From: Candidatus Heimdallarchaeota archaeon
GTDB taxonomy: Archaea; Asgardarchaeota; Heimdallarchaeia; Hodarchaeales; Hodarchaeaceae
NCBI GenBank assembly: GCA_020353515.1
Contig: CP070695.1
Location: forward strand, 3,945,460-4,009,459
DNA: 64,000 nucleotides
Direction of reading: 5' to 3'
The first letter of the stretch is position 1; each line of letters begins with the position of its first letter. Below are positions 46,173 through 55,819 of this stretch, piece after piece. The position numbers and the translations under genes were made by a program. The notes beneath the pieces were generated by a model, which saw nothing but the letters and a program-made list of their open reading frames with translations, was not told where the DNA came from and searched no databases.

Positions 46173-47606
46173 TTAATACTTTCCATCTGATGAGGATGTT
46201 CCCTTAACAATTGATACTGAGGCTGAGGCTCCAATACGGGTTGCGCCAGCCTTAATCATTTCTTCTGCTGCTTCGTGAGTTCTTATCCCTCCTGCTGCTT
46301 TAATTCCCATTTCAGGGCCAACAGTTTCTCTCATTAATGCTACATCCTCAACAAGTGCTCCTGCTGTACTAAACCCAGTGGACGTTTTAACGAAGTCTGC
46401 TCCTCCTAACTTAGATAAAAGACTTCCTTTAATTATCTCTTCCTTTGATAATAGCGCGGTTTCTAAAATGACTTTAACAAGAGCTTTTCCTTCTGCTGCT
46501 TGGACAACTGCTTCGATATCTTTTCTAACGAGATCATCATTCCCTGATTTTAACGCCCCCACATTAATGACCATATCAACTTCCTCTGCTCCATTTGCAA
46601 TCGCATCACGAGTTTCTATTGCTTTCACGGTTGGGGTAGTTGCCCCTAAGGGAAATCCAATGACTGTGCACACCTTCACAGGACTATCTTGGAGAAAGGA
46701 TTTGGCCAGTTTGACATTGGTTGGATTGACACAAACTGAAGCAAATTCATATTCTTTGGCTTCTTCACAGAGTTTTCTTATCTCTTCTTCTGTTGCATCA
46801 GCTTTTAGTACAGTGTGATCGATATATCTTGCTAAAGCTTGGTCAAAATTAGTCTGTCCAGGTTCCACTCCTATTCGTGATGCTCCACCATTAACTAAAA
46901 TTTGATACGCTGCTGTATATTCGTTAGCCACTTCTTTTCCAGCTGAACTAACAGTATATGGTAATTCCATTGATGGAATCGCCCGTACGGGGATTTCTCT
47001 AGTCATTTCACGTATATCAAGTACTGTTATCCCGATCTCTCTCAATTGGTTAATAATCTGGGTTATTCGTTGTATTACTGGTTGAGGAATATCTTCTGGT
47101 GATTTCTGACAACAAAAGATTGAATTCTTTGCAGCTATGACTGGAACGCCATTCATAAGGGCAAAAACCATGGTAATGGTTCCAAGGGAATCAGCATTCA
47201 ATGCTGCTACTTTTGCAGCGGTATTTAAGGATAAGACAGGAACATACAAAGTATCTGTATATGGTAATATTTTCTCATGAAATTCTTGAGTATACTCGGT
47301 GACGATTGTTCCTCCCTCGGAGAGACCTCTTATTTTTGGAATTCCAATTATTTGTTCTGCGGATTTTGTCATAACAACATAGATATTCGAGTAACGACTC
47401 ACAATAATAGCAATTTGACGATAAACTTCTTCTAGTTCCATATCACCCCCACAAAGTAAGATTATGACTGAATTATAGGTACTTACTGATCTTTTTGGGC
47501 CTTGGATAGGTGAAAGCACTGACTCCTTTTGAACAGCTCTTTCTTGACCTAATTTCGACAATACCTGCTCTGATATTCTTCGAACTAGCTCTTCATCTAT
47601 TTCCAT
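46173..47606 (-). CDS. deoC: Encapsulation peptide + flavoprotein-like domain + deoxyribose-phosphate aldolase
   Basis: [35 protein letters not shown]; N-domain [14 protein letters not shown]. Confidence 0.92.
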
Positions 47607-47608
47607 TA

Positions 47609-47917
47609 CTAACTTCTCCTATAACTTTCAGTTAAATCCCGTTGTTCTCCTTTGGTTTTGATAAAGTCCACAATTCCTACTACTAACGCATCGACCGCCC
47701 CTTTATCATCTTTCATAATACCACGAATAGAATTTCCTTCTTGTATTATAAGTACACAATCTCCTATTCCAGCTTGAGCAGTATCAAGAGCTATGAATGA
47801 ATCACCAGAAAATTTGCCATTTAAATCTACAGGACGAACGACTAGAATTTTATAATTCTCATGACTCTCTGTCTTAATGGTTGCCACAAGTGTACCAATT
47901 ACTCTAGCCAAAATCAT
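47609..47917 (-). CDS. BMC-P vertex protein (EutN/CcmL family)
   Basis: [15 protein letters not shown]...[11 protein letters not shown]...DALVVGIVD. Confidence 0.95.
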
Positions 47918-47925
47918 TGTTTTTT

Positions 47926-48366
47926 CTACTCCGAAGGTTTCTTCGTTTGAGGAGGTTTGGTTTTAGCGATTGTTTTCCTAGGGGCCCTTCTCCTTGAAGG
48001 TTTTTTCTTTGGAGGTTCTCTTGTTTTCGCAGGTTCTATATCTTCACTCACTATTTCTACTTTCTCTTTGATTGGTTTAGTTTTCTTTTTTGCAGCTTCA
48101 ACCACAGTATATTCCTCAACAAAACCAACAACGCATTCATCTATAGGAACTAATTCTCTAGGTATCGCAATAGCAGCCTCCTTCTTACTGACGATATAAA
48201 CTATATCTCCCTCTCCTGCAGTATATATTCCATCAGCAGCCACATAAGGGTTCCCAATAGGTTGGAAATTATCATCCAAACCTTGAATAATAAGGAAGCG
48301 CAATCCTTCAAGTCCAGGGTCTTTCACAGTAGCTACGACATTACCAATGACTTTTCCAAGCTTCAA
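47926..48366 (-). CDS. BMC-P vertex protein with basic C-terminal tail
   Basis: MKLGKVIGNVVATVK...AADG..AGEGD...DECVVGFVE plus Lys/Pro tail. Confidence 0.93.
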   Translation of the reverse strand: MKLGKVIGNVVATVKDPGLEGLRFLIIQGLDDNFQPIGNPYVAADGIYTAGEGDIVYIVSKKEAAIAIPRELVPIDECVVGFVEEYTVVEAAKKKTKPIKEKVEIVSEDIEPAKTREPPKKKPSRRRAPRKTIAKTKPPQTKKPSE

Positions 48367-48370
48367 GATC

Positions 48371-48823
48371 TTACAACAACTTCTTTTTTTCTAATTCGCG
48401 AATCTTATTTACACGGCGTTCATGACGACCCCCCCCGAAAGGAGTTTTTAACCACATTTTCACGATTTTTTGAGCCGTTTCTGCATCTATTACTCGAGCC
48501 CCAAGAGTTAGAATATTTGAATCATTGTGTTCTCGTGCTGAATGGGCGGTGAATTCGTCTGTACATGGTGTCGCTCTAATATTCTTGATTTTGTTGGCAA
48601 CGATTGCACTTGCCACACCAGTGCCATCAATGATGATCCCTTTACTCTCTAGCGAAACTGCAATATCTTGGGCCACTGATACAGCAATATCGGGGTAGTC
48701 TACTGCATCAGAAGTATAACACCCATAATCTTCTACTTCATAACCAAGACCTCTTATGAAGGCAATAAGATGTTTCTTCAATTCAAATCCACCATGATCG
48801 CTACCAATGATTATCTTTTTCAT
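48371..48823 (-). CDS. rpiB: RpiB/LacAB-family sugar-phosphate isomerase
   Basis: GSDHGG, VDYPD, ANK, AREHNDSN, FGGGRHERRV. Confidence 0.92.
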   Translation of the reverse strand: MKKIIIGSDHGGFELKKHLIAFIRGLGYEVEDYGCYTSDAVDYPDIAVSVAQDIAVSLESKGIIIDGTGVASAIVANKIKNIRATPCTDEFTAHSAREHNDSNILTLGARVIDAETAQKIVKMWLKTPFGGGRHERRVNKIRELEKKKLL

Positions 48824-48853
48824 TTTTATGCCTCACATCGATCATACTTACTA

Positions 48854-49402
48854 TTATAATAAATGTTTTAGCAAATCTTTGTGCGGAGCTGGAATAATTG
48901 TAGTAGACAGAACCAAACCTTCATCTTTTACCCGATTTACAGCTGCACTGATTGCAGCTTTAACTGCTCCTACTTCACCTGTGAATAATGCAAAAGCTTT
49001 ACCCCCCAAGGCACGACTCAGTCGTATCTCGATCAATTTAATTTTGGCACTTTTGACTGCCTCATCAGCAGCCATAACTGCTGAGGGTGCTGAATAAGTT
49101 TCTATCATTCCAATGGCACCAATTTCTTCGACAGAAGTAGTTCCACTAATCGCTGGAAATACTTCAGGATGAACATTAGGGATAATTGTGAACCCAGTTA
49201 CAGTTTCTCCAGCTGTCCTGCTACCTATATCCATTGAGCTTTTTATTGACGAGATTGTACCTTGAATTATGATCAAGTATTTTCCTGGACATACGGGTGT
49301 CGAAACCAATAATTTCACATCAGCAGCTTTAGCCATGGAATCGGCAGCAAGAAGTCCTCTCGCCATGACATTGGTTTCTATGATTCCAATTGCACGCATC
49401 AT
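48854..49402 (-). CDS. pduT: BMC-T tandem shell protein, PduT-like
   Basis: Two BMC domains; CPGKY motif; LGGKAF. Confidence 0.88.
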   Translation of the reverse strand: MMRAIGIIETNVMARGLLAADSMAKAADVKLLVSTPVCPGKYLIIIQGTISSIKSSMDIGSRTAGETVTGFTIIPNVHPEVFPAISGTTSVEEIGAIGMIETYSAPSAVMAADEAVKSAKIKLIEIRLSRALGGKAFALFTGEVGAVKAAISAAVNRVKDEGLVLSTTIIPAPHKDLLKHLL

Positions 49403-49483
49403 AATGACCTATCAAGTCTAAAGCAGAAAAATAGTCTATTGTACAGAGATGCTTAAAAGGCATCCATTCGTACAAATATCAAA

Positions 49484-49759
49484 CTATTTTCCTGGTAATA
49501 TAGTTTCGACTTCTTCGTGTGGACTTGGGATCACATGTGCTGATATTAATTCGCCAACTTTACGACCAGCAAGAGCCCCTGCTTCAACAGATGCTTTTAC
49601 AGCTCCTACATCGCCACGAACCATCACAGTCACATAACCGCCACCTATTATTTCTTTTCCAATAAGGTGGACGTTTGCTGCTTTTACCATCGCATCAGCT
49701 GCTTCAATAGAAGCAACTAAACCCTTAGTTTCAATTAAACCTAATGCTTCTTTAGCCAT
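49484..49759 (-). CDS. BMC-H hexameric shell protein (PduA/EutM-like)
   Basis: [26 protein letters not shown]...[11 protein letters not shown]...HVIPSPH; GGTGA SD. Confidence 0.97.
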
Positions 49760-49784
49760 TTTTGTTCACCAAATCTTTTTTTTT

Positions 49785-51116
49785 CTAGTTTTTGTTTTCT
49801 ATTATTATTTCATCTTGGATCTTTGTGATAGTTCCATCGATACTTGCATGAACCATCGCTCCAAGAGAATCTTCAGGAATTCTTCCTATCACATCACCTT
49901 CAGACACTTTATCCCCAATTTTTACTGTAGGGATCGCCTGAATACCAATGTGCTGTTTTAAGGGAATTCTCACATAATTAATTTTCAATGTTGGTGTTGT
50001 TATTGGAGATTTCAGATGATCATAATCAGTTAACCCTAACCTTGAGACAAGCCTTTTGGTAGGTAATCGTCTTATCCCCCTTTCAGGATGTATTTCTAAT
50101 TCCTTACGTCTATGAGGATTTTTCATTCCTTCAGTAATTAGCTGATTTTTGATTTCCCATACGATTTTGGCTGGGTCAAGTCCCATGGGACATCCATAAT
50201 ATGTACATGCCCCACAAAATACACACAAAAAGCTACCCGTCAAATCACTATTTTTTACCTCTCCTCCGAATGAAACTACTCGCATGATTCTATCAGGATA
50301 TAAATTATGACCAAGTAAATGCCGAGGACAGACTACGGTACATAATTCACACTTTATGCAAGCAGCATTTGAGATAACAACCTTACGTGGCATCATTTGG
50401 GATTTCATTGATATTAAAAAGTGATCTGCAGGTAGTACAATAATGCCAGATGTTGTTTTTACAATTGGTGACCTAAGATCAGGTAATAATTCTCCCATTA
50501 TAGGCCCTCCTACTATGACCTTATAGGAATCTACTGTTGGACCTCCAGCCAATTTAATTGCAGTTTCTATAGGAGTTCCAATGGGAAAATTGATTGTTTG
50601 AGGTTTTTTCACTGCACCTGATATCGTCACATATCGGGAAATAACGGGTTTTCCCTCCGTAGCTTCGGCCATATGAACCAAAGTACCGATATTATTAACG
50701 ACTACTCCAATATCAAGAGGAATTCCTCCTTCAGGAACAGATTTTTGAAGTATATCTTGAACTAGGACGAACTCATCTCCAGCAGGATAATAATCTTCGA
50801 GAAGAAATAGTTCAATATTCTTTTCTTCAGAAATTACCTTTTTAATTGCATTAACTGAAGGAGAAAATTTCTTTTTTATTGCAATAACTCCTTTTTTCGC
50901 TCCTGTTGCCTTCATCCCTAATTTAAGACCTTCTATTACCTTTTCAGGAAACAAAGCCATTAATTGTTGATCTACACTTAATAGAGGTTCACATTCAGCA
51001 CCATTAGCAATATATGTATTGACTCTGGCAGATATCTTGACGTGTGTGGGAAATCCCGCACCTCCAGCTCCAATGATTCCTGCTTTTCTCACCATTTCTA
51101 CCAAGTCAGTACTCAC
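49785..51116 (-). CDS. pduS: PduS/RnfC-like FMN and Fe-S oxidoreductase
   Basis: GAGGAGFPT, NGAECEP, CIKCELC..CP, CVFCGAC..CP, C-terminal QHIG...VHASIDG. Confidence 0.9.
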   Translation of the reverse strand: MSTDLVEMVRKAGIIGAGGAGFPTHVKISARVNTYIANGAECEPLLSVDQQLMALFPEKVIEGLKLGMKATGAKKGVIAIKKKFSPSVNAIKKVISEEKNIELFLLEDYYPAGDEFVLVQDILQKSVPEGGIPLDIGVVVNNIGTLVHMAEATEGKPVISRYVTISGAVKKPQTINFPIGTPIETAIKLAGGPTVDSYKVIVGGPIMGELLPDLRSPIVKTTSGIIVLPADHFLISMKSQMMPRKVVISNAACIKCELCTVVCPRHLLGHNLYPDRIMRVVSFGGEVKNSDLTGSFLCVFCGACTYYGCPMGLDPAKIVWEIKNQLITEGMKNPHRRKELEIHPERGIRRLPTKRLVSRLGLTDYDHLKSPITTPTLKINYVRIPLKQHIGIQAIPTVKIGDKVSEGDVIGRIPEDSLGAMVHASIDGTITKIQDEIIIENKN

Positions 51117-51141
51117 TTTTTTCTATCCTTCTTTTTATGCT

Positions 51142-52569
51142 TTATACTATTCTAAATGCATCAACTAAAACACACCGTCGTTGACGGGTGAAAGTTCGCG
51201 CTGAGGTTAACCCTTCTCCCGTTGGTCCAGCAATCGTCATGGTAGTATAGCCTTCGCCTCCAAATCCAAGCCCAGCATATGAGGGGGCGTTTTTTACAAA
51301 AATAGTGGTTTCAATGTGTTTTGCTACGAGACTCATGTTTCCTAAACTATCGCTCCACATCGTTGCAGTGTGTTTAAAGCCATGTTCTGCTTTTTTCGCC
51401 CTTGCAAGAGCTTCTTCGATAGTATTTACACGAACGATTGGAAGAATAGGCATTAGTTGTTCTGTGACAACAAAAGGATGCGTATCATCGGGTACTTCTG
51501 CTATTATTAACCGAATATCATCTCCTACTCTGATTCCGATCTGTTCCAGAATATCTGGAGCATTTTTACCGATGAATTTCACGTTTTTTATAGGATGTTT
51601 CTCTCCAGTCGCAGTAAAGACAAGTTTTACCAACTCATCAATTTGCCTTCCTTTTACTTCATACGCACCGTACCTTTGCATTTCAGCCATAAGTTCATCA
51701 ATAATGTTCTCAAATGCAAATACTTCTTTTTCTGCTATACATACAATATTGTTATCAAAACTTGCTCCTTCTATAATTCCCCGAGCTGCTTTCTGGATAT
51801 CCGCTGTATCATCAACAATCACAGGTGGATTTCCTGGGCCAGCAGCAACAGTTTTCTTTCCTGACGTCATTGCTGCCTTTACTACTGCTCCTCCTCCAGT
51901 AACAACTAGACAGCGAATTTTCGGGTGCTTCATTACTGCCTGAGCTGTTTGTATTGTCGGATTGATCACAGAAGTTAGGACATTTTCAGGGCCTCCAGCT
52001 TCAATAATGGCCCGATTCATTAAGCGTATTGTTTCGTTTGTAGCCCTCTTTGCTGCGGGATGAGGATTAAATAAAACAGTATTTCCTGCTGAAACCATAG
52101 AGATAGAATTATTAATTATTGTGGCTGTGGGATTTGTAGAGGGAGTTATAGACCCAATCACTCCATATGGTGCCATTTCAACAAGGGTTAACCCCCGATC
52201 CCCTGTCCATGTTGTTGATTCTAAATCCTCAACTCCAGGTGTTTTTCTTGCACATAGAAGATTTTTAGCTGTTTTATCTTCCAAGCGACCTATACCTGTA
52301 TCTTGAACAGCTAATTCTGCTAGATAACGGGCATGCTTAGTTGCCATATCTCTCATGGAATTAATTATCTCTTTCCTCTTCTCCAGTGAAATAGAAGATA
52401 GTGTACTGTACGCTGCTTCTGATGCTGTTATAGCTTCATCAATAGTTTGAAAGATACCTCCTCCTGATGTAATGGGGATGTTGTCTATTCCAGAATAGAC
52501 TTGATATGCACGAATTCTTTTAACAACTGTATTTACAATCTTGGAGATTTCCTGTTCATCAATTGTCAT
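51142..52569 (-). CDS. eutE: CoA-acylating aldehyde dehydrogenase (EutE/PduP family) with N-terminal encapsulation peptide
   Basis: PSTNPT, VTGG, GPGNPP, FDNNIVCIAEKE, TIAGPTGEG, RQRRC. Confidence 0.93.
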   Translation of the reverse strand: MTIDEQEISKIVNTVVKRIRAYQVYSGIDNIPITSGGGIFQTIDEAITASEAAYSTLSSISLEKRKEIINSMRDMATKHARYLAELAVQDTGIGRLEDKTAKNLLCARKTPGVEDLESTTWTGDRGLTLVEMAPYGVIGSITPSTNPTATIINNSISMVSAGNTVLFNPHPAAKRATNETIRLMNRAIIEAGGPENVLTSVINPTIQTAQAVMKHPKIRCLVVTGGGAVVKAAMTSGKKTVAAGPGNPPVIVDDTADIQKAARGIIEGASFDNNIVCIAEKEVFAFENIIDELMAEMQRYGAYEVKGRQIDELVKLVFTATGEKHPIKNVKFIGKNAPDILEQIGIRVGDDIRLIIAEVPDDTHPFVVTEQLMPILPIVRVNTIEEALARAKKAEHGFKHTATMWSDSLGNMSLVAKHIETTIFVKNAPSYAGLGFGGEGYTTMTIAGPTGEGLTSARTFTRQRRCVLVDAFRIV

Positions 52570-52617
52570 CTATCAACCTCTAATTAATGTTTCATAAAAA
52601 CTCAAAGTTATCATCAT

Positions 52618-52908
52618 TTATTTTGCGTAAGTTTGTTTTCCATCAATCTTTATAAAATCAATAATCGCTTGAATTGTCGCATCAACAGGTCGATCTTTAG
52701 TCATGGCTGTTAAACGGGAGGAACTTCCAGAAACTACCATTACAATTTCACCCTCACCTGCACCTACCACATCAACAGCTACAAATGGGGATCCTTCTGG
52801 TCTAAATTCTTTCATATCAACAGGTTGGACAATAAGCAGTTTGAATGCGTTTAAATTCTCATCTTTTTTCGTACTAACTACATTCCCTATTACTCTACAG
52901 ATTTTCAT
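52618..52908 (-). CDS. BMC-P vertex protein (EutN/CcmL family)
   Basis: VIGNVVSTKK, VAVDVVGAGEGE, GSSSR, PVDATIQAIID. Confidence 0.95.
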   Translation of the reverse strand: MKICRVIGNVVSTKKDENLNAFKLLIVQPVDMKEFRPEGSPFVAVDVVGAGEGEIVMVVSGSSSRLTAMTKDRPVDATIQAIIDFIKIDGKQTYAK

Positions 52909-52919
52909 AAGTATTTCAC

Positions 52920-53645
52920 CTAAATTCTCACAATACGTATACCTAAATCCCGAGCTTTCTCTCGTGCCAAAGGAGTAACGATTGCTGTGCGTGGTACCCT
53001 TAACTCGAGGGTTTTTCCATCCAAAGTCTTGATGTATGTCTCTGTTATGAGATCTGGGATTCGGGGGGGACTTTTTAAAAAGCGTTCTTTCAAGTCATTT
53101 TCATCAAGAACGCCAAACCCAATCTTTACAAGGAGAGAAAGTCTTTTTCTTAATTCTTGATTGATTTTACTTAGTGGTTTATATTCAGAAACTAAATCCA
53201 TTAAATTAAACGGTGTTAATATATATACTGGAACATTATAAAGAAGCCCTTGGATCAATACATTTACTATAGGATCCTCATCTTGAAATTGAATTAATTT
53301 ATCTGCTATCTCAAAGCTAAATGCACCAAAGATTATATACTCTAAATCAATAAAATCAGTGAGAATAAAACTATTTCTTTCACCTATAATAACTTTCATT
53401 GATGGCATTGAAGCGCACCTAACTGAGATTTGGAGGAGAAAATCAATTTCCTCTAGTGTCCAAATTAATACTGGAATTTCTTCGCGAGATAATTGAATTA
53501 AAGACTCGAACAACTTGTCAATACCTTTACCCATATGAGTCAAAATTCCTAGGACCTTGAACGAACCTGAAACCTCTTTGTGCTCTGTTTTCAGGGCCTT
53601 TTCGACTTCACGGGCAACAACTGCTGATAGTTGTTCGTCTTCCAT
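52920..53645 (-). CDS. BMC-associated flavoprotein-like protein with encapsulation peptide
   Basis: N-terminal amphipathic helix; degenerate flavoprotein fold; C-terminal LITE...AIVTPLAREKARDLGI motif. Confidence 0.7.
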   Translation of the reverse strand: MEDEQLSAVVAREVEKALKTEHKEVSGSFKVLGILTHMGKGIDKLFESLIQLSREEIPVLIWTLEEIDFLLQISVRCASMPSMKVIIGERNSFILTDFIDLEYIIFGAFSFEIADKLIQFQDEDPIVNVLIQGLLYNVPVYILTPFNLMDLVSEYKPLSKINQELRKRLSLLVKIGFGVLDENDLKERFLKSPPRIPDLITETYIKTLDGKTLELRVPRTAIVTPLAREKARDLGIRIVRI

Positions 53646-53660
53646 TTCTTATAGGACTTC

Positions 53661-53978
53661 CTAATATTTTTTTTCTTTAAATGCCTTCTTTTCCTTTTTA
53701 CTTAACATTTCAATAGTAGTTAGAATATCAGCAGCAGGTTGGGCAATAATATTTGCTGTGACATATGTGCAAATTGTTTTAGCTTCCTTTCGGGCTTTTT
53801 CAATGGCACTATGTACAGCTGCAACGTCTCCCTTAATTATTAATGTTATTAATCCTCCTGAAGTTCTACTAAGAGATATTAACCTCACATTTGCTGTTTT
53901 CAATGCAATGTCAGTAGCCACAATAGCCCCCAATCGTCCAGACGTTTCTATAAACCCTAATGCTGACATTGAATTCAC
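53661..53978 (-). CDS. BMC-H shell protein (divergent)
   Basis: ALGFIETSG...ALKTANV...KGDVAAV. Confidence 0.9.
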   Translation of the reverse strand: MNSMSALGFIETSGRLGAIVATDIALKTANVRLISLSRTSGGLITLIIKGDVAAVHSAIEKARKEAKTICTYVTANIIAQPAADILTTIEMLSKKEKKAFKEKKY

Positions 53979-55819
53979 CTAAATGGAGAAAAAGTGCTTT
54001 GATCAAGATTTGTAATAATATGACCCAAATCACCGTCGTTCAGTGCAAGAGCATTCCCTTCATCAACATCCAGATGCAATTCAAGCTGGGATAGAGGATG
54101 AATTCTTACTATAATTTCATCCAGAATTCCAGCTCGTTTTCCAGGGAAACTTACAGCGACTTTTTGTTTATCTTTCACCCCAAATTTCGCTGCATCATCA
54201 GGACTCATATGAATATGTCTAGCTGCACGGATAACTCCTTTCTTTATTTGGATTGCTCCTTTAGGGCCAATGATATGAATACCGGGTGTACCTGAAAGAT
54301 TTCCAGAATGACGGATAGGGGGATTTATTCCAAGAACATGTCCATCACTAAGAGAAATTTCAACTTGTGTCTGCTCTTTAAATGGTTTTAGAACACATAT
54401 TCCTTTTATTGACCTTCTAGATCCGACAAGTTCTACTCTTAAACCACACGAGGGTGTTTTTGATTGTTTCAATTCGGAATCTAATCCAAATAAGCGTAAA
54501 AAATCACTTTGACTTAAATGAACATGCCGAGCTGAAAGAGCAACGGGTACCAACCTATCCTGAAAAACCCTTTGTAATTCTTGTTTCACAAACCGTTCAA
54601 CTAAAGTAATATCTTCAAAATGTGCTTCTCTCTCTGTCAAAGGAATATACTCACACCCCAAAGGTCCACAATATCTTCCAATATAATCAGCAGAAGGGCG
54701 GTATAGTACAGGTTTTGCACTCGGAGCTTCTGGAAATTTTTCTTCTAGTACGTGAGCAGCCCAACCAGCAGATCTTGACATTGTAAAAATTGGTGTAAAA
54801 AGGTGCATTGGAATGCCCATGGAAGTATAGACTGAAGCACCGTATAAGTCAACATTTGGATAGATTTCTAGTCCTTTTCGTCTTCTAAATTCTTCTTGTG
54901 TAATTACTACCATTTTATTTGTTGTATCATATATCCATTGAGCAAACTCAGTTTTACCTCGGATTAATCTTTTTGCCATCTCTCTTAATATTTTTGCACG
55001 AGGATCAATGGTTTTATATACCGCATGACCCATTCCCATGATACGTGTTCCTGTATCAAACTGCTTCTTTACCCATTCATCAACATTTGACATTTCTTTT
55101 ATTTCTAAAAGATTCATCATGACTCGTGGGCTTGCTCCTCCATGATATTTCCCAGATAGAGAGCCAATTGCTCCTGAAATGGCCGCATAGAGATCTGCTC
55201 CTGTAGATGCGATAACTCTTGCAGTAAAAGTTGAAGCGTTGAAAGAATGCTCAGCATGAAGAATAAGAGCGATATCAAAACATCTAGCAATGTCTTTTGC
55301 TGGTTCTTCCCCCTTTAACATATAAAGAAAATTTGCTGCATGAGATAATTTCTTGTGTGGAACAATTGGCTTTTTTTCATTCCTAATTCTCTCCCAAGCT
55401 GCTACAATGGTAGGGATTTTTGCAATAATCCGAATTGCTATTCTTCTGTGTGATTCTTTAGATTCATCTGTGATTTCAGGGTCAAAACCTGCTAATAGAG
55501 CAAGAGAAGACTGGAGAACATTCATTGTGGGAGTAGTTTCAGGGGATTGGCGGAGTTGTTCTATTACTTCTTGGGGAATTTCCCGTTCTGCTACTAAAGC
55601 TGTATTTAATTCTTCTATTTGAGTAGAATTCGGTAATTGCCCATAAATAAGCAGATATACTATCTCTTCATAAGTTGAATGCTCTGCTAAATCTTGTATG
55701 CTATAACCTCTATAAAAAAGATTTCCAATTTCTCCTTCAATCAAGCATAGATTAGTATCACTAACTTCAACGCCTCGTAAACCGGTCGATTTTAAACTAT
55801 ACTCTTCAACCATTTCCAT
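53975..55819 (-). CDS. Citrate synthase - PduL (phosphotransacylase) fusion
   Basis: Citrate synthase motifs GLRGV, LFYRGY, NASTF, HGGA, GMGHAVYK, PNVD; PduL motifs RHVHLS, TQVEIS, RHIHM, HLDVDEGNA. Confidence 0.9.
   Translation of the reverse strand: MEMVEEYSLKSTGLRGVEVSDTNLCLIEGEIGNLFYRGYSIQDLAEHSTYEEIVYLLIYGQLPNSTQIEELNTALVAEREIPQEVIEQLRQSPETTPTMNVLQSSLALLAGFDPEITDESKESHRRIAIRIIAKIPTIVAAWERIRNEKKPIVPHKKLSHAANFLYMLKGEEPAKDIARCFDIALILHAEHSFNASTFTARVIASTGADLYAAISGAIGSLSGKYHGGASPRVMMNLLEIKEMSNVDEWVKKQFDTGTRIMGMGHAVYKTIDPRAKILREMAKRLIRGKTEFAQWIYDTTNKMVVITQEEFRRRKGLEIYPNVDLYGASVYTSMGIPMHLFTPIFTMSRSAGWAAHVLEEKFPEAPSAKPVLYRPSADYIGRYCGPLGCEYIPLTEREAHFEDITLVERFVKQELQRVFQDRLVPVALSARHVHLSQSDFLRLFGLDSELKQSKTPSCGLRVELVGSRRSIKGICVLKPFKEQTQVEISLSDGHVLGINPPIRHSGNLSGTPGIHIIGPKGAIQIKKGVIRAARHIHMSPDDAAKFGVKDKQKVAVSFPGKRAGILDEIIVRIHPLSQLELHLDVDEGNALALNDGDLGHIITNLDQSTFSPFR

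Follow-up and report, generated by a model that had tools for sequence, protein, structure and literature searches.

A citrate synthase–PduL fusion in a Hodarchaeales sugar-phosphate microcompartment operon: a probable CoA-recycling enzyme, with an altered PduL active site in one clade

The first gene of a 12-gene microcompartment operon of the sugar-phosphate (SPU) type in a Hodarchaeales genome (closed, one contig, 4.94 Mb) encodes a citrate synthase (CS), an amphipathic linker helix and a PduL domain in one uninterrupted open reading frame (CS-EP-PduL). Taken as a whole, the protein is best explained, and we consider this quite likely, as the CoA-recycling enzyme of the compartment, targeted by its helix, with the citrate branch as the main one here and a changed role for PduL. 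An earlier note on this DNA had proposed CoA recycling via citrate, and the computational evidence supports that proposal: the CS residues are invariant, the helix is homologous to the encapsulation peptide of split archaeal PduLs, the CS tracks the compartment, and acetate kinase is absent. The note also saw the route as possibly new and was aware of no such fusion in described microcompartment types. This claim to novelty fails, because a preprint of November 2025 on archaeal microcompartments already describes two ways of recycling CoA, one by CS and one by phosphotransacylase (PTAC), the two enzymes being fused in some lineages. It predicts an encapsulation peptide in the CS-PTAC linker and reports that recruitment to shells in E. 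coli depends on the peptide (Du et al., 2025; bioRxiv 10.1101/2025.11.08.687404; PMC12747264). Since the citrate-synthase route is already public, the present finding is mainly an independent confirmation from raw sequence; it adds that the fusion appears to be limited to Hodarchaeales, that the CS tracks the compartment, and that there is a subclade without acetate kinase whose PduL phosphate site is altered. The features of the window, the whole 64,000-nt stretch of DNA that was analysed, are as follows.

53975..55819, minus strand: whole CS-EP-PduL gene, from the open reading frame listing and translation, with two Pfam domains
54629..55783, minus strand: citrate synthase domain (residues 13–397), short archaeal/type II form, with C-terminal arm
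54563..54616, minus strand: amphipathic linker helix EDITLVERFVKQELQRVF (residues 402–419), predicted encapsulation peptide
54041..54547, minus strand: PduL (PTAC) domain (residues 425–593), PF06130
54377..54397, minus strand: altered PduL motif ICVLKPFK (canonical VRVLGPxR), with Cys475 at the position of Arg97 and Lys481 at that of Arg103 of the R. palustris PduL (rPduL)
46173..53978, minus strand: rest of the microcompartment operon, from Pfam scans, the TIGR00126 deoC match and a gene order shared with relatives

Counted from its first ATG, the reading frame spans 614 aa; the public gene call starts at Met3 (window position 55813) and so has 612 aa, and a 612-aa cluster representative is 100% identical to it. 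The earlier description of the gene held up in its particulars: CS, helix and PduL share a single frame in which both Pfam domains are full length, the CS motifs are in place (HGGA at residues 226–229, GMGHAVYK at 262–269, PNVD at 321–324), and the coordinates given for the helix are exact. A single frame of this kind could have arisen by an assembly or frameshift error merging two neighbouring genes, as CS and PduL are separate and adjacent, 80 bp apart, in the close relative CP070760.1, with which the locus is syntenic. However, of the nine PduL-bearing genomes in the order, eight have the same fused frame open (615–625 aa), it recurs in independent assemblies that make up about 30 protein clusters, and the linker is kept across the fusions, where the CS-PduL junction is conserved and under purifying selection. 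Because of this recurrence and selection, the fusion is, as judged from these comparisons, not an assembly artefact, and we give almost no weight to the alternative.

The CS half matches its family in profile, fold and active-site residues. Pfam PF00285 (Citrate_synt) matches residues 13–363 (E 2.1e-122; profile positions 1–349 of 357), residues 12–398 align end to end with the CS structures of T. thermophilus and P. furiosus (1IOM, 1AJ8), and this half of an AF2 model of the whole fusion has pLDDT 80–95. The catalytic triad His226, His265 and Asp324, which we take to correspond to His274, His320 and Asp375 of pig CS, is invariant among 28 fusions, as are the oxaloacetate/citrate-binding residues His191, Asn194, Arg274, Arg349 and Arg374 (presumably pig His238, Asn242, Arg329, Arg401 and Arg421). 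By sequence the domain could prefer either acetyl-CoA or propionyl-CoA, because the best NCBIfam match is to a mixed "2-methylcitrate synthase/citrate synthase II" subfamily and scores slightly below its cut-off (418.8 vs 421.3 bits). If the domain were a 2-methylcitrate synthase acting on propionyl-CoA, the compartment would handle propionaldehyde instead of acetaldehyde. Apart from that mixed model, methylcitrate synthases do occur among the PDB relatives, yet they score below the citrate synthases, which are also the best-scoring NCBIfam equivalog models. The signature enzyme of the operon, a DeoC-type DERA (TIGR00126, E 1e-86), gives acetaldehyde, and Pfam scans of the operon turned up neither a diol dehydratase nor any other enzyme that would supply propionaldehyde. 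Furthermore, when the genome was checked for a second citrate synthase, one other full-length CS was found, 41% identical, and this paralogue lies within a prpB-prpC-prpD operon. A propionyl-CoA enzyme is therefore distinctly improbable.

Between the two domains, residues 402–419 form a predicted encapsulation peptide, as judged by both sequence and structural models. The 18-residue helical hydrophobic moment is 0.525, about 2 sd above the protein mean of 0.253 (sd 0.134), which ranks this window 28th of 597, and two AlphaFold models place a helix flanked by coil at residues 403–419 and 398–418. By alignment, the helix is a homologue of the encapsulation peptide at the N-terminus of stand-alone (split) archaeal PduLs, and long forms of CS carry a similar helix after the CS domain. 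For homologues from GCA_003144275, the linker peptide is reported as required for recruitment to shells in E. coli (PMC12747264).

The operon occupies one strand (46173–55819), and CS-EP-PduL is followed in order by BMC-H, a 241-aa DUF protein, BMC-P, AldDH, an RnfC/PduS-like NADH dehydrogenase, BMC-H, BMC-T, RpiB, BMC-P with a K/R-rich tail, BMC-P, and DERA with an N-terminal extension. In Pfam terms, the locus holds two BMC-H, one tandem BMC and three EutN/CcmL shell proteins together with DeoC, RpiB, Aldedh and RnfC-like enzymes; BMC-H, BMC-T and BMC-P thus stand at one locus with the DeoC-type aldolase, RpiB and AldDH that mark SPU-type metabolosomes. The host is recognizably archaeal from the flanking genes for eL42 (Ribosomal_L44), a GPN-loop ATPase and DUF835 proteins, and close homologues of CS-EP-PduL are labelled Hodarchaeales or Heimdallarchaeota.

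Presence of the CS follows presence of the compartment. All nine PduL-bearing (compartment) genomes have the CS orthologue (62–100% identity), always fused or adjacent to PduL at the operon, while just one of the 13 genomes of the same genus that have no compartment carries it, and there it has an in-frame TAG. The fusion itself appears, from sequence searches, to be restricted to Hodarchaeales. Among 1.84 billion cluster representatives, a single one extends across the junction, and the fusion searches found no bacterial CS-PduL. The earlier note had allowed that the fusion might be common in bacterial SPU loci; the searches do not bear this out, since they found it only in Hodarchaeales. Split CS and PduL architectures occur in relatives, and covalent linkage is therefore dispensable for the compartment. 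In a CS tree from a quick search, with a very long PrpC outgroup branch, the compartment-linked CSs stand apart from a clade of 73 stand-alone CSs, of which five carry source names, all of them archaeal. The CS was probably an archaeal addition, and a stand-alone orthologue beside sucCD and fumarase in genome G014 suggests recruitment from the TCA gene of the host.

These features suggest a route in which the helix would bring the fused protein into the compartment, where it would free CoA from acetyl-CoA. Acetyl-CoA made by AldDH would be condensed with oxaloacetate by the CS domain, in or at the compartment, and the resulting citrate would leave for cytosolic aconitase and IDH, or for ATP-citrate lyase. 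The PduL domain would represent the ancestral route, from acetyl-CoA and phosphate to acetyl-phosphate, and would be kept here for a reduced or modified role, acting perhaps as an overflow valve, in the manner of a thioesterase or in the assembly of the core. We infer both catalytic activities, the direction of flux, that oxaloacetate and citrate can cross the shell, and that PduL has a changed role; we know of no carrier for citrate export across a microcompartment shell. Enzymes that could act downstream are encoded in the genome, namely aconitases, IDH and an AclB/AclA-like cluster. The idea that ATP-citrate lyase tracks the compartment was rejected, as 19 of the 22 genomes of the genus have AclB, irrespective of the compartment.

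What sets this lineage apart is the acetyl-phosphate branch. Acetate kinase was said to be missing from the locus, and indeed PF00871 has no match there or anywhere else in the closed 4.94-Mb genome. The same genome has no match to Pta (PF01515), and no phosphoketolase was found in it. PF00871 likewise has no match in genomes G010 and G020. In relatives, acetate kinase occupies one fixed slot, after DERA; this slot is empty in precisely the clade with the altered PduL described below, including two further contigs of that clade. The fusion as such is not coupled to the loss, a possibility that was rejected because five fused genomes of the order survey and loci L017 and L018 keep acetate kinase; among the fused lineages, only the altered-PduL subclade is without it. 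Two acylphosphatase domains in the genome could consume acetyl-phosphate, and these are uninformative because such domains are common in most genomes.

The fold of the PduL domain is retained. PF06130 (PTAC) matches residues 425–593 (E 2.7e-57; profile positions 1–175 of 176), and phmmer against 5CUO gives E 1e-42. The first AlphaFold model of the whole fusion, made from 28 close homologues, had pLDDT below 50 in this half, and the domain was remodelled from a deeper alignment; this second model replaces the first and has pLDDT 86.8 and TM 0.90, with an rmsd of about 2 Å, to 5CUO. In rPduL, zinc is bound by His48, His50, Glu109, His157, His159 and His204, Arg97 binds CoA, and Arg103 contacts phosphate and is said to be present in all PduL homologues (PMC4784909). 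The six zinc ligands are present here (His432, His434, Glu487, His535, His537 and His582) and kept in 51 of 51 aligned sequences. The two arginines are not: Cys475 and Lys481 replace them in all seven sequences of this genome's clade, whereas Arg stands at both positions in all 44 other PduLs, be they fused, split or bacterial. The LSQPGQ(F/Y) loop (Gln74, Gln/Glu77) is also 6–9 residues shorter and reads QSKTPS; Gln74 is possibly retained, depending on the alignment, and the mapping of rPduL Lys70, which adjoins the indel, is ambiguous.

Acetate kinase was lost on the same branch on which PduL changed, so the two count as a single evolutionary event and not as a replicated correlation. Nevertheless, since the kinase is gone and PduL is altered where it contacts phosphate and CoA, the citrate branch is probably the main one, and citrate is probably the main productive exit for acetyl units in this lineage. 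Within the clade lacking acetate kinase, dN/dS is about 0.07–0.09 for the PduL domain and 0.09–0.14 for CS, which indicates purifying selection on both and argues that PduL does something. Lysine can often replace arginine at a phosphate site, and the PduL domain may therefore still work as a phosphotransacylase. A bolder version holds that the subclade has switched fully from substrate-level phosphorylation to citrate-only export through a compartment-tethered sole non-Prp CS, with a PduL that is no longer a phosphotransacylase and now serves instead as a thioesterase-like safety valve or in core assembly; this we regard as conceivable and somewhat doubtful.

The retained selection on a PduL domain that has neither the two conserved arginines nor a kinase partner also fits a retained non-catalytic role, and the fusion could be mainly a structural organiser, in which a dimeric CS, an oligomerising PduL and the peptide cross-link the cargo core and at least one domain is catalytically unimportant. 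Citrate synthases are dimers, and the R. palustris PduL, dimeric when its peptide is removed, is hexameric when the peptide is present (PMC4784909). However, none of the CS catalytic residues or PduL metal ligands varies, which is unexpected for a pure scaffold, and relatives manage with split architectures, so that an organising role as the main function is unlikely. Far less probable still is that the enzyme runs in another direction, from citrate through acetyl-CoA to acetyl-phosphate, or from acetyl-phosphate through acetyl-CoA to citrate, with CoA shuttling between the active sites. Both reactions are reversible in principle and two fused CoA-handling domains could channel CoA, but acetate kinase, Pta and phosphoketolase, through which acetyl-phosphate could be made or used, are all absent from the genome, citrate cleavage is already covered by the ATP-citrate lyase genes and is, if driven by CS, strongly unfavourable by established thermodynamics, and acetyl-CoA is supplied directly by the AldDH of the same operon. 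The CoA-recycling reading, with citrate as the main product, accommodates these observations best.

Comparison with known systems helps to place the enzyme. The Hodarchaeales CS+PTAC system presented in the preprint shares the operon type, the host order, the CS-linker peptide-PTAC layout and the proposal of CoA recycling through citrate; its representative operon has acetate kinase, whereas the clade described here has none and carries the Arg97Cys and Arg103Lys changes and the shortened QPGQF loop. The main text of the preprint makes no mention of acetate kinase loss, of these PduL changes or of ATP-citrate lyase (PMC12747264). The present protein is 60–65% identical to the majority fused clade. 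The R. palustris PduL (5CUO; PMC4784909) is 42% identical, shares the fold and the six zinc ligands, and likewise has an amphipathic helix directly N-terminal to its catalytic domain; here, in contrast, a whole CS precedes the helix, in addition to the replacement of Arg103 by Lys and of Arg97 by Cys. A Myxococcota-type SPU locus (GCA_016218815.1, L009) shares the order PduL, DUF, BMC-P, AldDH, RnfC-like, shell genes, RpiB and DeoC, with a homologous DUF protein and a PduL about 48% identical to this one. This one bacterial locus has no citrate synthase gene, and its PduL carries a Cys-rich C-terminal tail instead of an N-terminal helix. Bacterial AckA-PduL and PduO-PduL proteins similarly join PduL to an acyl-CoA or cofactor enzyme, but the partners are acetate kinase (PF00871) or adenosyltransferase (PF01923), not citrate synthase.

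The discovery of microcompartments in the archaeal order nearest to eukaryotes is recent and notable, and citrate synthase as a second CoA-recycling route is one of the features that distinguish them. An analogy, and an analogy only, can be drawn with the mitochondrial citrate shuttle, in which matrix citrate synthase and cytosolic ATP-citrate lyase serve to export acetyl units as citrate past a CoA-impermeable barrier; the barrier here is a protein shell and not a membrane, the export of citrate is presumed, and the genome has AclB/AclA-like genes. If the bolder, citrate-only version were correct, cytosolic ATP-citrate lyase could regenerate acetyl-CoA and oxaloacetate, and the archaea most closely related to eukaryotes would have a protein-shell analogue of that shuttle. 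The fused enzyme exists in two sister clades, one with and one without the acetyl-phosphate/ATP branch, which constitute a natural experiment; comparing them could reveal the partition of flux between ATP formation and the TCA cycle, and the function of PduL without its kinase partner.

Citrate synthase (CS) and the phosphotransacylase PduL (PTAC) are encoded here by one gene, joined through a putative encapsulation peptide (EP). CS-EP-PduL is the first gene of a densely packed minus-strand operon (46173-55819), transcribed in the order CS-EP-PduL, BMC-H, a 241-aa DUF protein, BMC-P, acylating AldDH, an RnfC/PduS-like Fe-S flavoprotein, BMC-H, a tandem-domain BMC-T, RpiB, BMC-P with a K/R-rich tail, BMC-P and DeoC-type DERA. 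The operon has archaeal flanks (eL42, a GPN-loop ATPase, DUF835), the source genome (G000) is one contig of 4.94 Mb, and close homologues carry Hodarchaeales or Heimdallarchaeota labels.

Features of the operon and of related loci
53975-55819, minus: CS-EP-PduL, single open frame of 614 codons
54563-54616, minus: amphipathic 18-residue linker helix (residues 402-419) between the CS and PduL domains
52920-53645, minus: 241-aa DUF, C-terminal module at about 52938-52982
47926-48366, minus: second BMC-P, Lys/Arg/Pro-rich C-terminal tail of ~60 aa
46173-47606, minus: DERA, 477 aa, N-terminal extension of ~250 aa without Pfam match
G000:C1:508356-512399 (L002): operon of prpB-like (PEP mutase/ICL family), CS-like and PrpD (MmgE/PrpD) genes
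G000:C1:3849499-3856667 (L014, L004): AclB (Citrate_bind), AclA-like and isocitrate dehydrogenase cluster, aconitase nearby, ~93 kb from the window
G000:C1:4058644-4062648 (L003): second AclA-like/citryl-CoA-lyase-like protein, 713 aa, adjoining a CitF homologue
G014:C1:303254-304444 (L013:5243-6442), minus: CS orthologue of a relative without the compartment, 62% identity, adjoining sucC, sucD and fumarase
L015:11426-11470 and L007:9689-9733: ~45-aa module in other loci

The earlier note had read one ORF across both domains, and the frame (612 aa from Met3 in the public gene call) indeed holds a full CS domain (residues 13-363, Pfam E 2e-122) followed by a complete PduL/PTAC domain (residues 425-593, E 3e-57); the three intact CS motifs and the helix lie where that note placed them. 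The helix has a hydrophobic moment of 0.525 (protein mean 0.253, sd 0.134) and is flanked by coil in two predicted models. Along its whole length the CS domain can be aligned with short-type citrate synthases of solved structure (1IOM, E 1e-88; 1AJ8, E 2e-86), and its catalytic His226, His265 and Asp324 are unvaried across 28 fused homologues, as are the binding residues His191, Asn194, Arg274, Arg349 and Arg374.

Similarity of the PduL domain to R. palustris PduL (5CUO) reaches E 1e-42, and the domain model (pLDDT 86.8) superposes on that structure with a TM of 0.90. Mapped through the published residue list (PMC4784909; offset = chain index + 32), the domain keeps all six Zn ligands and Ser45, Leu99, Gln107, Ser127, Arg194 and Asn211. 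Arg103, the phosphate contact said to occur in every PduL homologue, and Arg97, a CoA contact (PMC4784909), are replaced by Lys481 and Cys475, and the conserved LSQPGQ(F/Y) loop is 6-9 residues shorter, beyond recognition. These changes occur in 7/7 members of the clade and in none of 44 other PduLs, which include other fused archaeal, split archaeal and bacterial forms. Within the clade, dN/dS is 0.07-0.09 for the PduL domain versus 0.09-0.14 for the CS domain; PduL is as constrained as CS and is therefore not decaying.

Acetate kinase, which the earlier note did not see in the locus, is absent from the entire closed genome, as are Pta and phosphoketolase. Across the order this kinase is exclusive to compartment-bearing genomes, 8-9 kb from PduL; in relatives its position is constant, flanked by DERA and by a conserved 376-aa gene of convergent orientation. 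The source genome, two near relatives (G010, G020) and two further contigs lack a gene at this position, and these loci are exactly those with the altered PduL. In a CS tree from a quick search, with uncertain root, the altered-PduL clade lies inside the fused forms, sister to the main acetate-kinase-positive clade, and the kinase-less state is therefore derived.

Among longer PduL-containing proteins, the PF00285+PF06130 architecture turned up only in Hodarchaeales/Heimdall-labelled clusters, whereas the bacterial PduL fusions found have acetate kinase or a PduO-type adenosyltransferase as partner instead of CS. A junction query (residues 300-500) against 1.84 billion cluster representatives gave one match across the junction, a Hodarchaeales fusion; the remaining matches listed cover one half each. 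PduL is present in 9/24 genomes of the order (8 fused, 1 split), and three architectures occur: a peptide-less CS adjoining peptide-PduL (CP070760.1, a close relative), CS-peptide with a ~45-aa C-terminal module adjoining PduL, and the full fusion. Under the NCBI label Odinarchaeota, a further contig (L015; GCA_048885365.1, JBHLPY010000010.1) also carries a complete operon (long CS, PduL, shell genes, AldDH, DERA, acetate kinase); its bin has the wrong label, or else the compartment exists beyond Hodarchaeales. DERA is just 235-289 aa in this locus and in CP070760.1.

The ~45-aa module, ending I(V/I)TPLAR(D/E)(R/K)A..LGI.I, forms the C-terminus of the operon's DUF protein and terminates the long CS forms (496-534 aa) of other Hodarchaeales, past a peptide-like helix. 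Without a counterpart in Pfam or NCBIfam, the module is shared with the DUF of a Myxococcota-type SPU locus (L009, GCA_016218815.1; BLASTP E 5e-6) and may serve to bind shell or cargo. The PduL of L009 (10001-10699) and other ~230-aa bacterial PduLs (P0228, P0239, P0255, P0265, P0293, P0307; most without taxon label) lack an N-terminal helix and have a C-terminal tail rich in Cys, SLC..C....C......P(F/Y)C, whereas archaeal PduLs, fused or split, have a conserved (Y/F)SPFR end.

Gene order from PduL onward is the same in L009, the one Myxococcota-type locus examined, but the CS gene is absent there. The closest non-compartment CS relatives with source names are archaeal (55-60% identity). Orthologues of the compartment CS (62-100% identity) occur in 9/9 PduL-bearing genomes, each at the operon, and in 1/13 compartment-less genomes of the genus (G014), where the gene stands on its own and a single in-frame TAG at the position of a Pro in CS-EP-PduL could reflect a pseudogene, a sequencing error or a read-through codon; remaining matches reach at most 48%. 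A further citrate synthase, which the earlier note proposed to look for, lies between PrpB-like and PrpD genes (41% identity); this methylcitrate-cycle operon carries the sole other full-length CS of the genome. The operon probably took up a TCA-type CS of the host, which acquired the peptide and was then fused; this history stays an inference, as the CS tree comes from a quick search and its root is uncertain.

Among citrate-handling enzymes, the source genome carries aconitases, IDH and an AclB/AclA-like cluster, whose AclA-like gene combines CoA_binding, Ligase_CoA and a CS-like C-domain; citrate can therefore enter the TCA cycle or be re-cleaved to cytosolic acetyl-CoA. AclB is present in 19/22 genomes of the genus, and canonical CS is absent from most. 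ACL occurrence is independent of the compartment, so that a 'citrate shuttle' dedicated to it is no more than possible.

Hodarchaeales microcompartments of sugar-phosphate-utilisation type, acquired from Myxococcota, were reported in a preprint in which operon-encoded CS and PTAC provide two CoA-releasing routes, with the genes fused in some lineages and encapsulation peptides predicted 'as linkers between two domains' (Du et al., 2025; PMC12747264). In the same preprint, shells in E. coli are reported to have recruited GFP-tagged enzymes only with the peptide present; the DERA extension is given as a flavoprotein domain, and the second BMC-P tail matches the DNA-binding disordered region given for AMC-P2 (PMC12747264). 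Citrate and archaea are unmentioned in the main text of the 2021 BMC catalogue, and citrate likewise in the 2024 SPU characterisation paper. The proposal in the earlier note of CS as a CoA-recycling route is thus right in substance and already public. The fusion is genuine and of biological interest, and CS-EP-PduL would be, in line with the preprint, the compartment's CoA-recycling enzyme.

In this lineage the acetyl-phosphate/ATP branch has lost both its kinase and its phosphate-site arginine, which, judged from sequence, makes citrate synthesis probably the main exit of acetyl units, with the PduL domain probably retained for a reduced or changed role. Confidence is limited, since kinase loss and the alterations in PduL amount to a single evolutionary event. 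That this lineage lost acetate kinase and has a remodelled phosphate site in PduL is a detail unreported in the main text of Du et al. that deserves a bench test.
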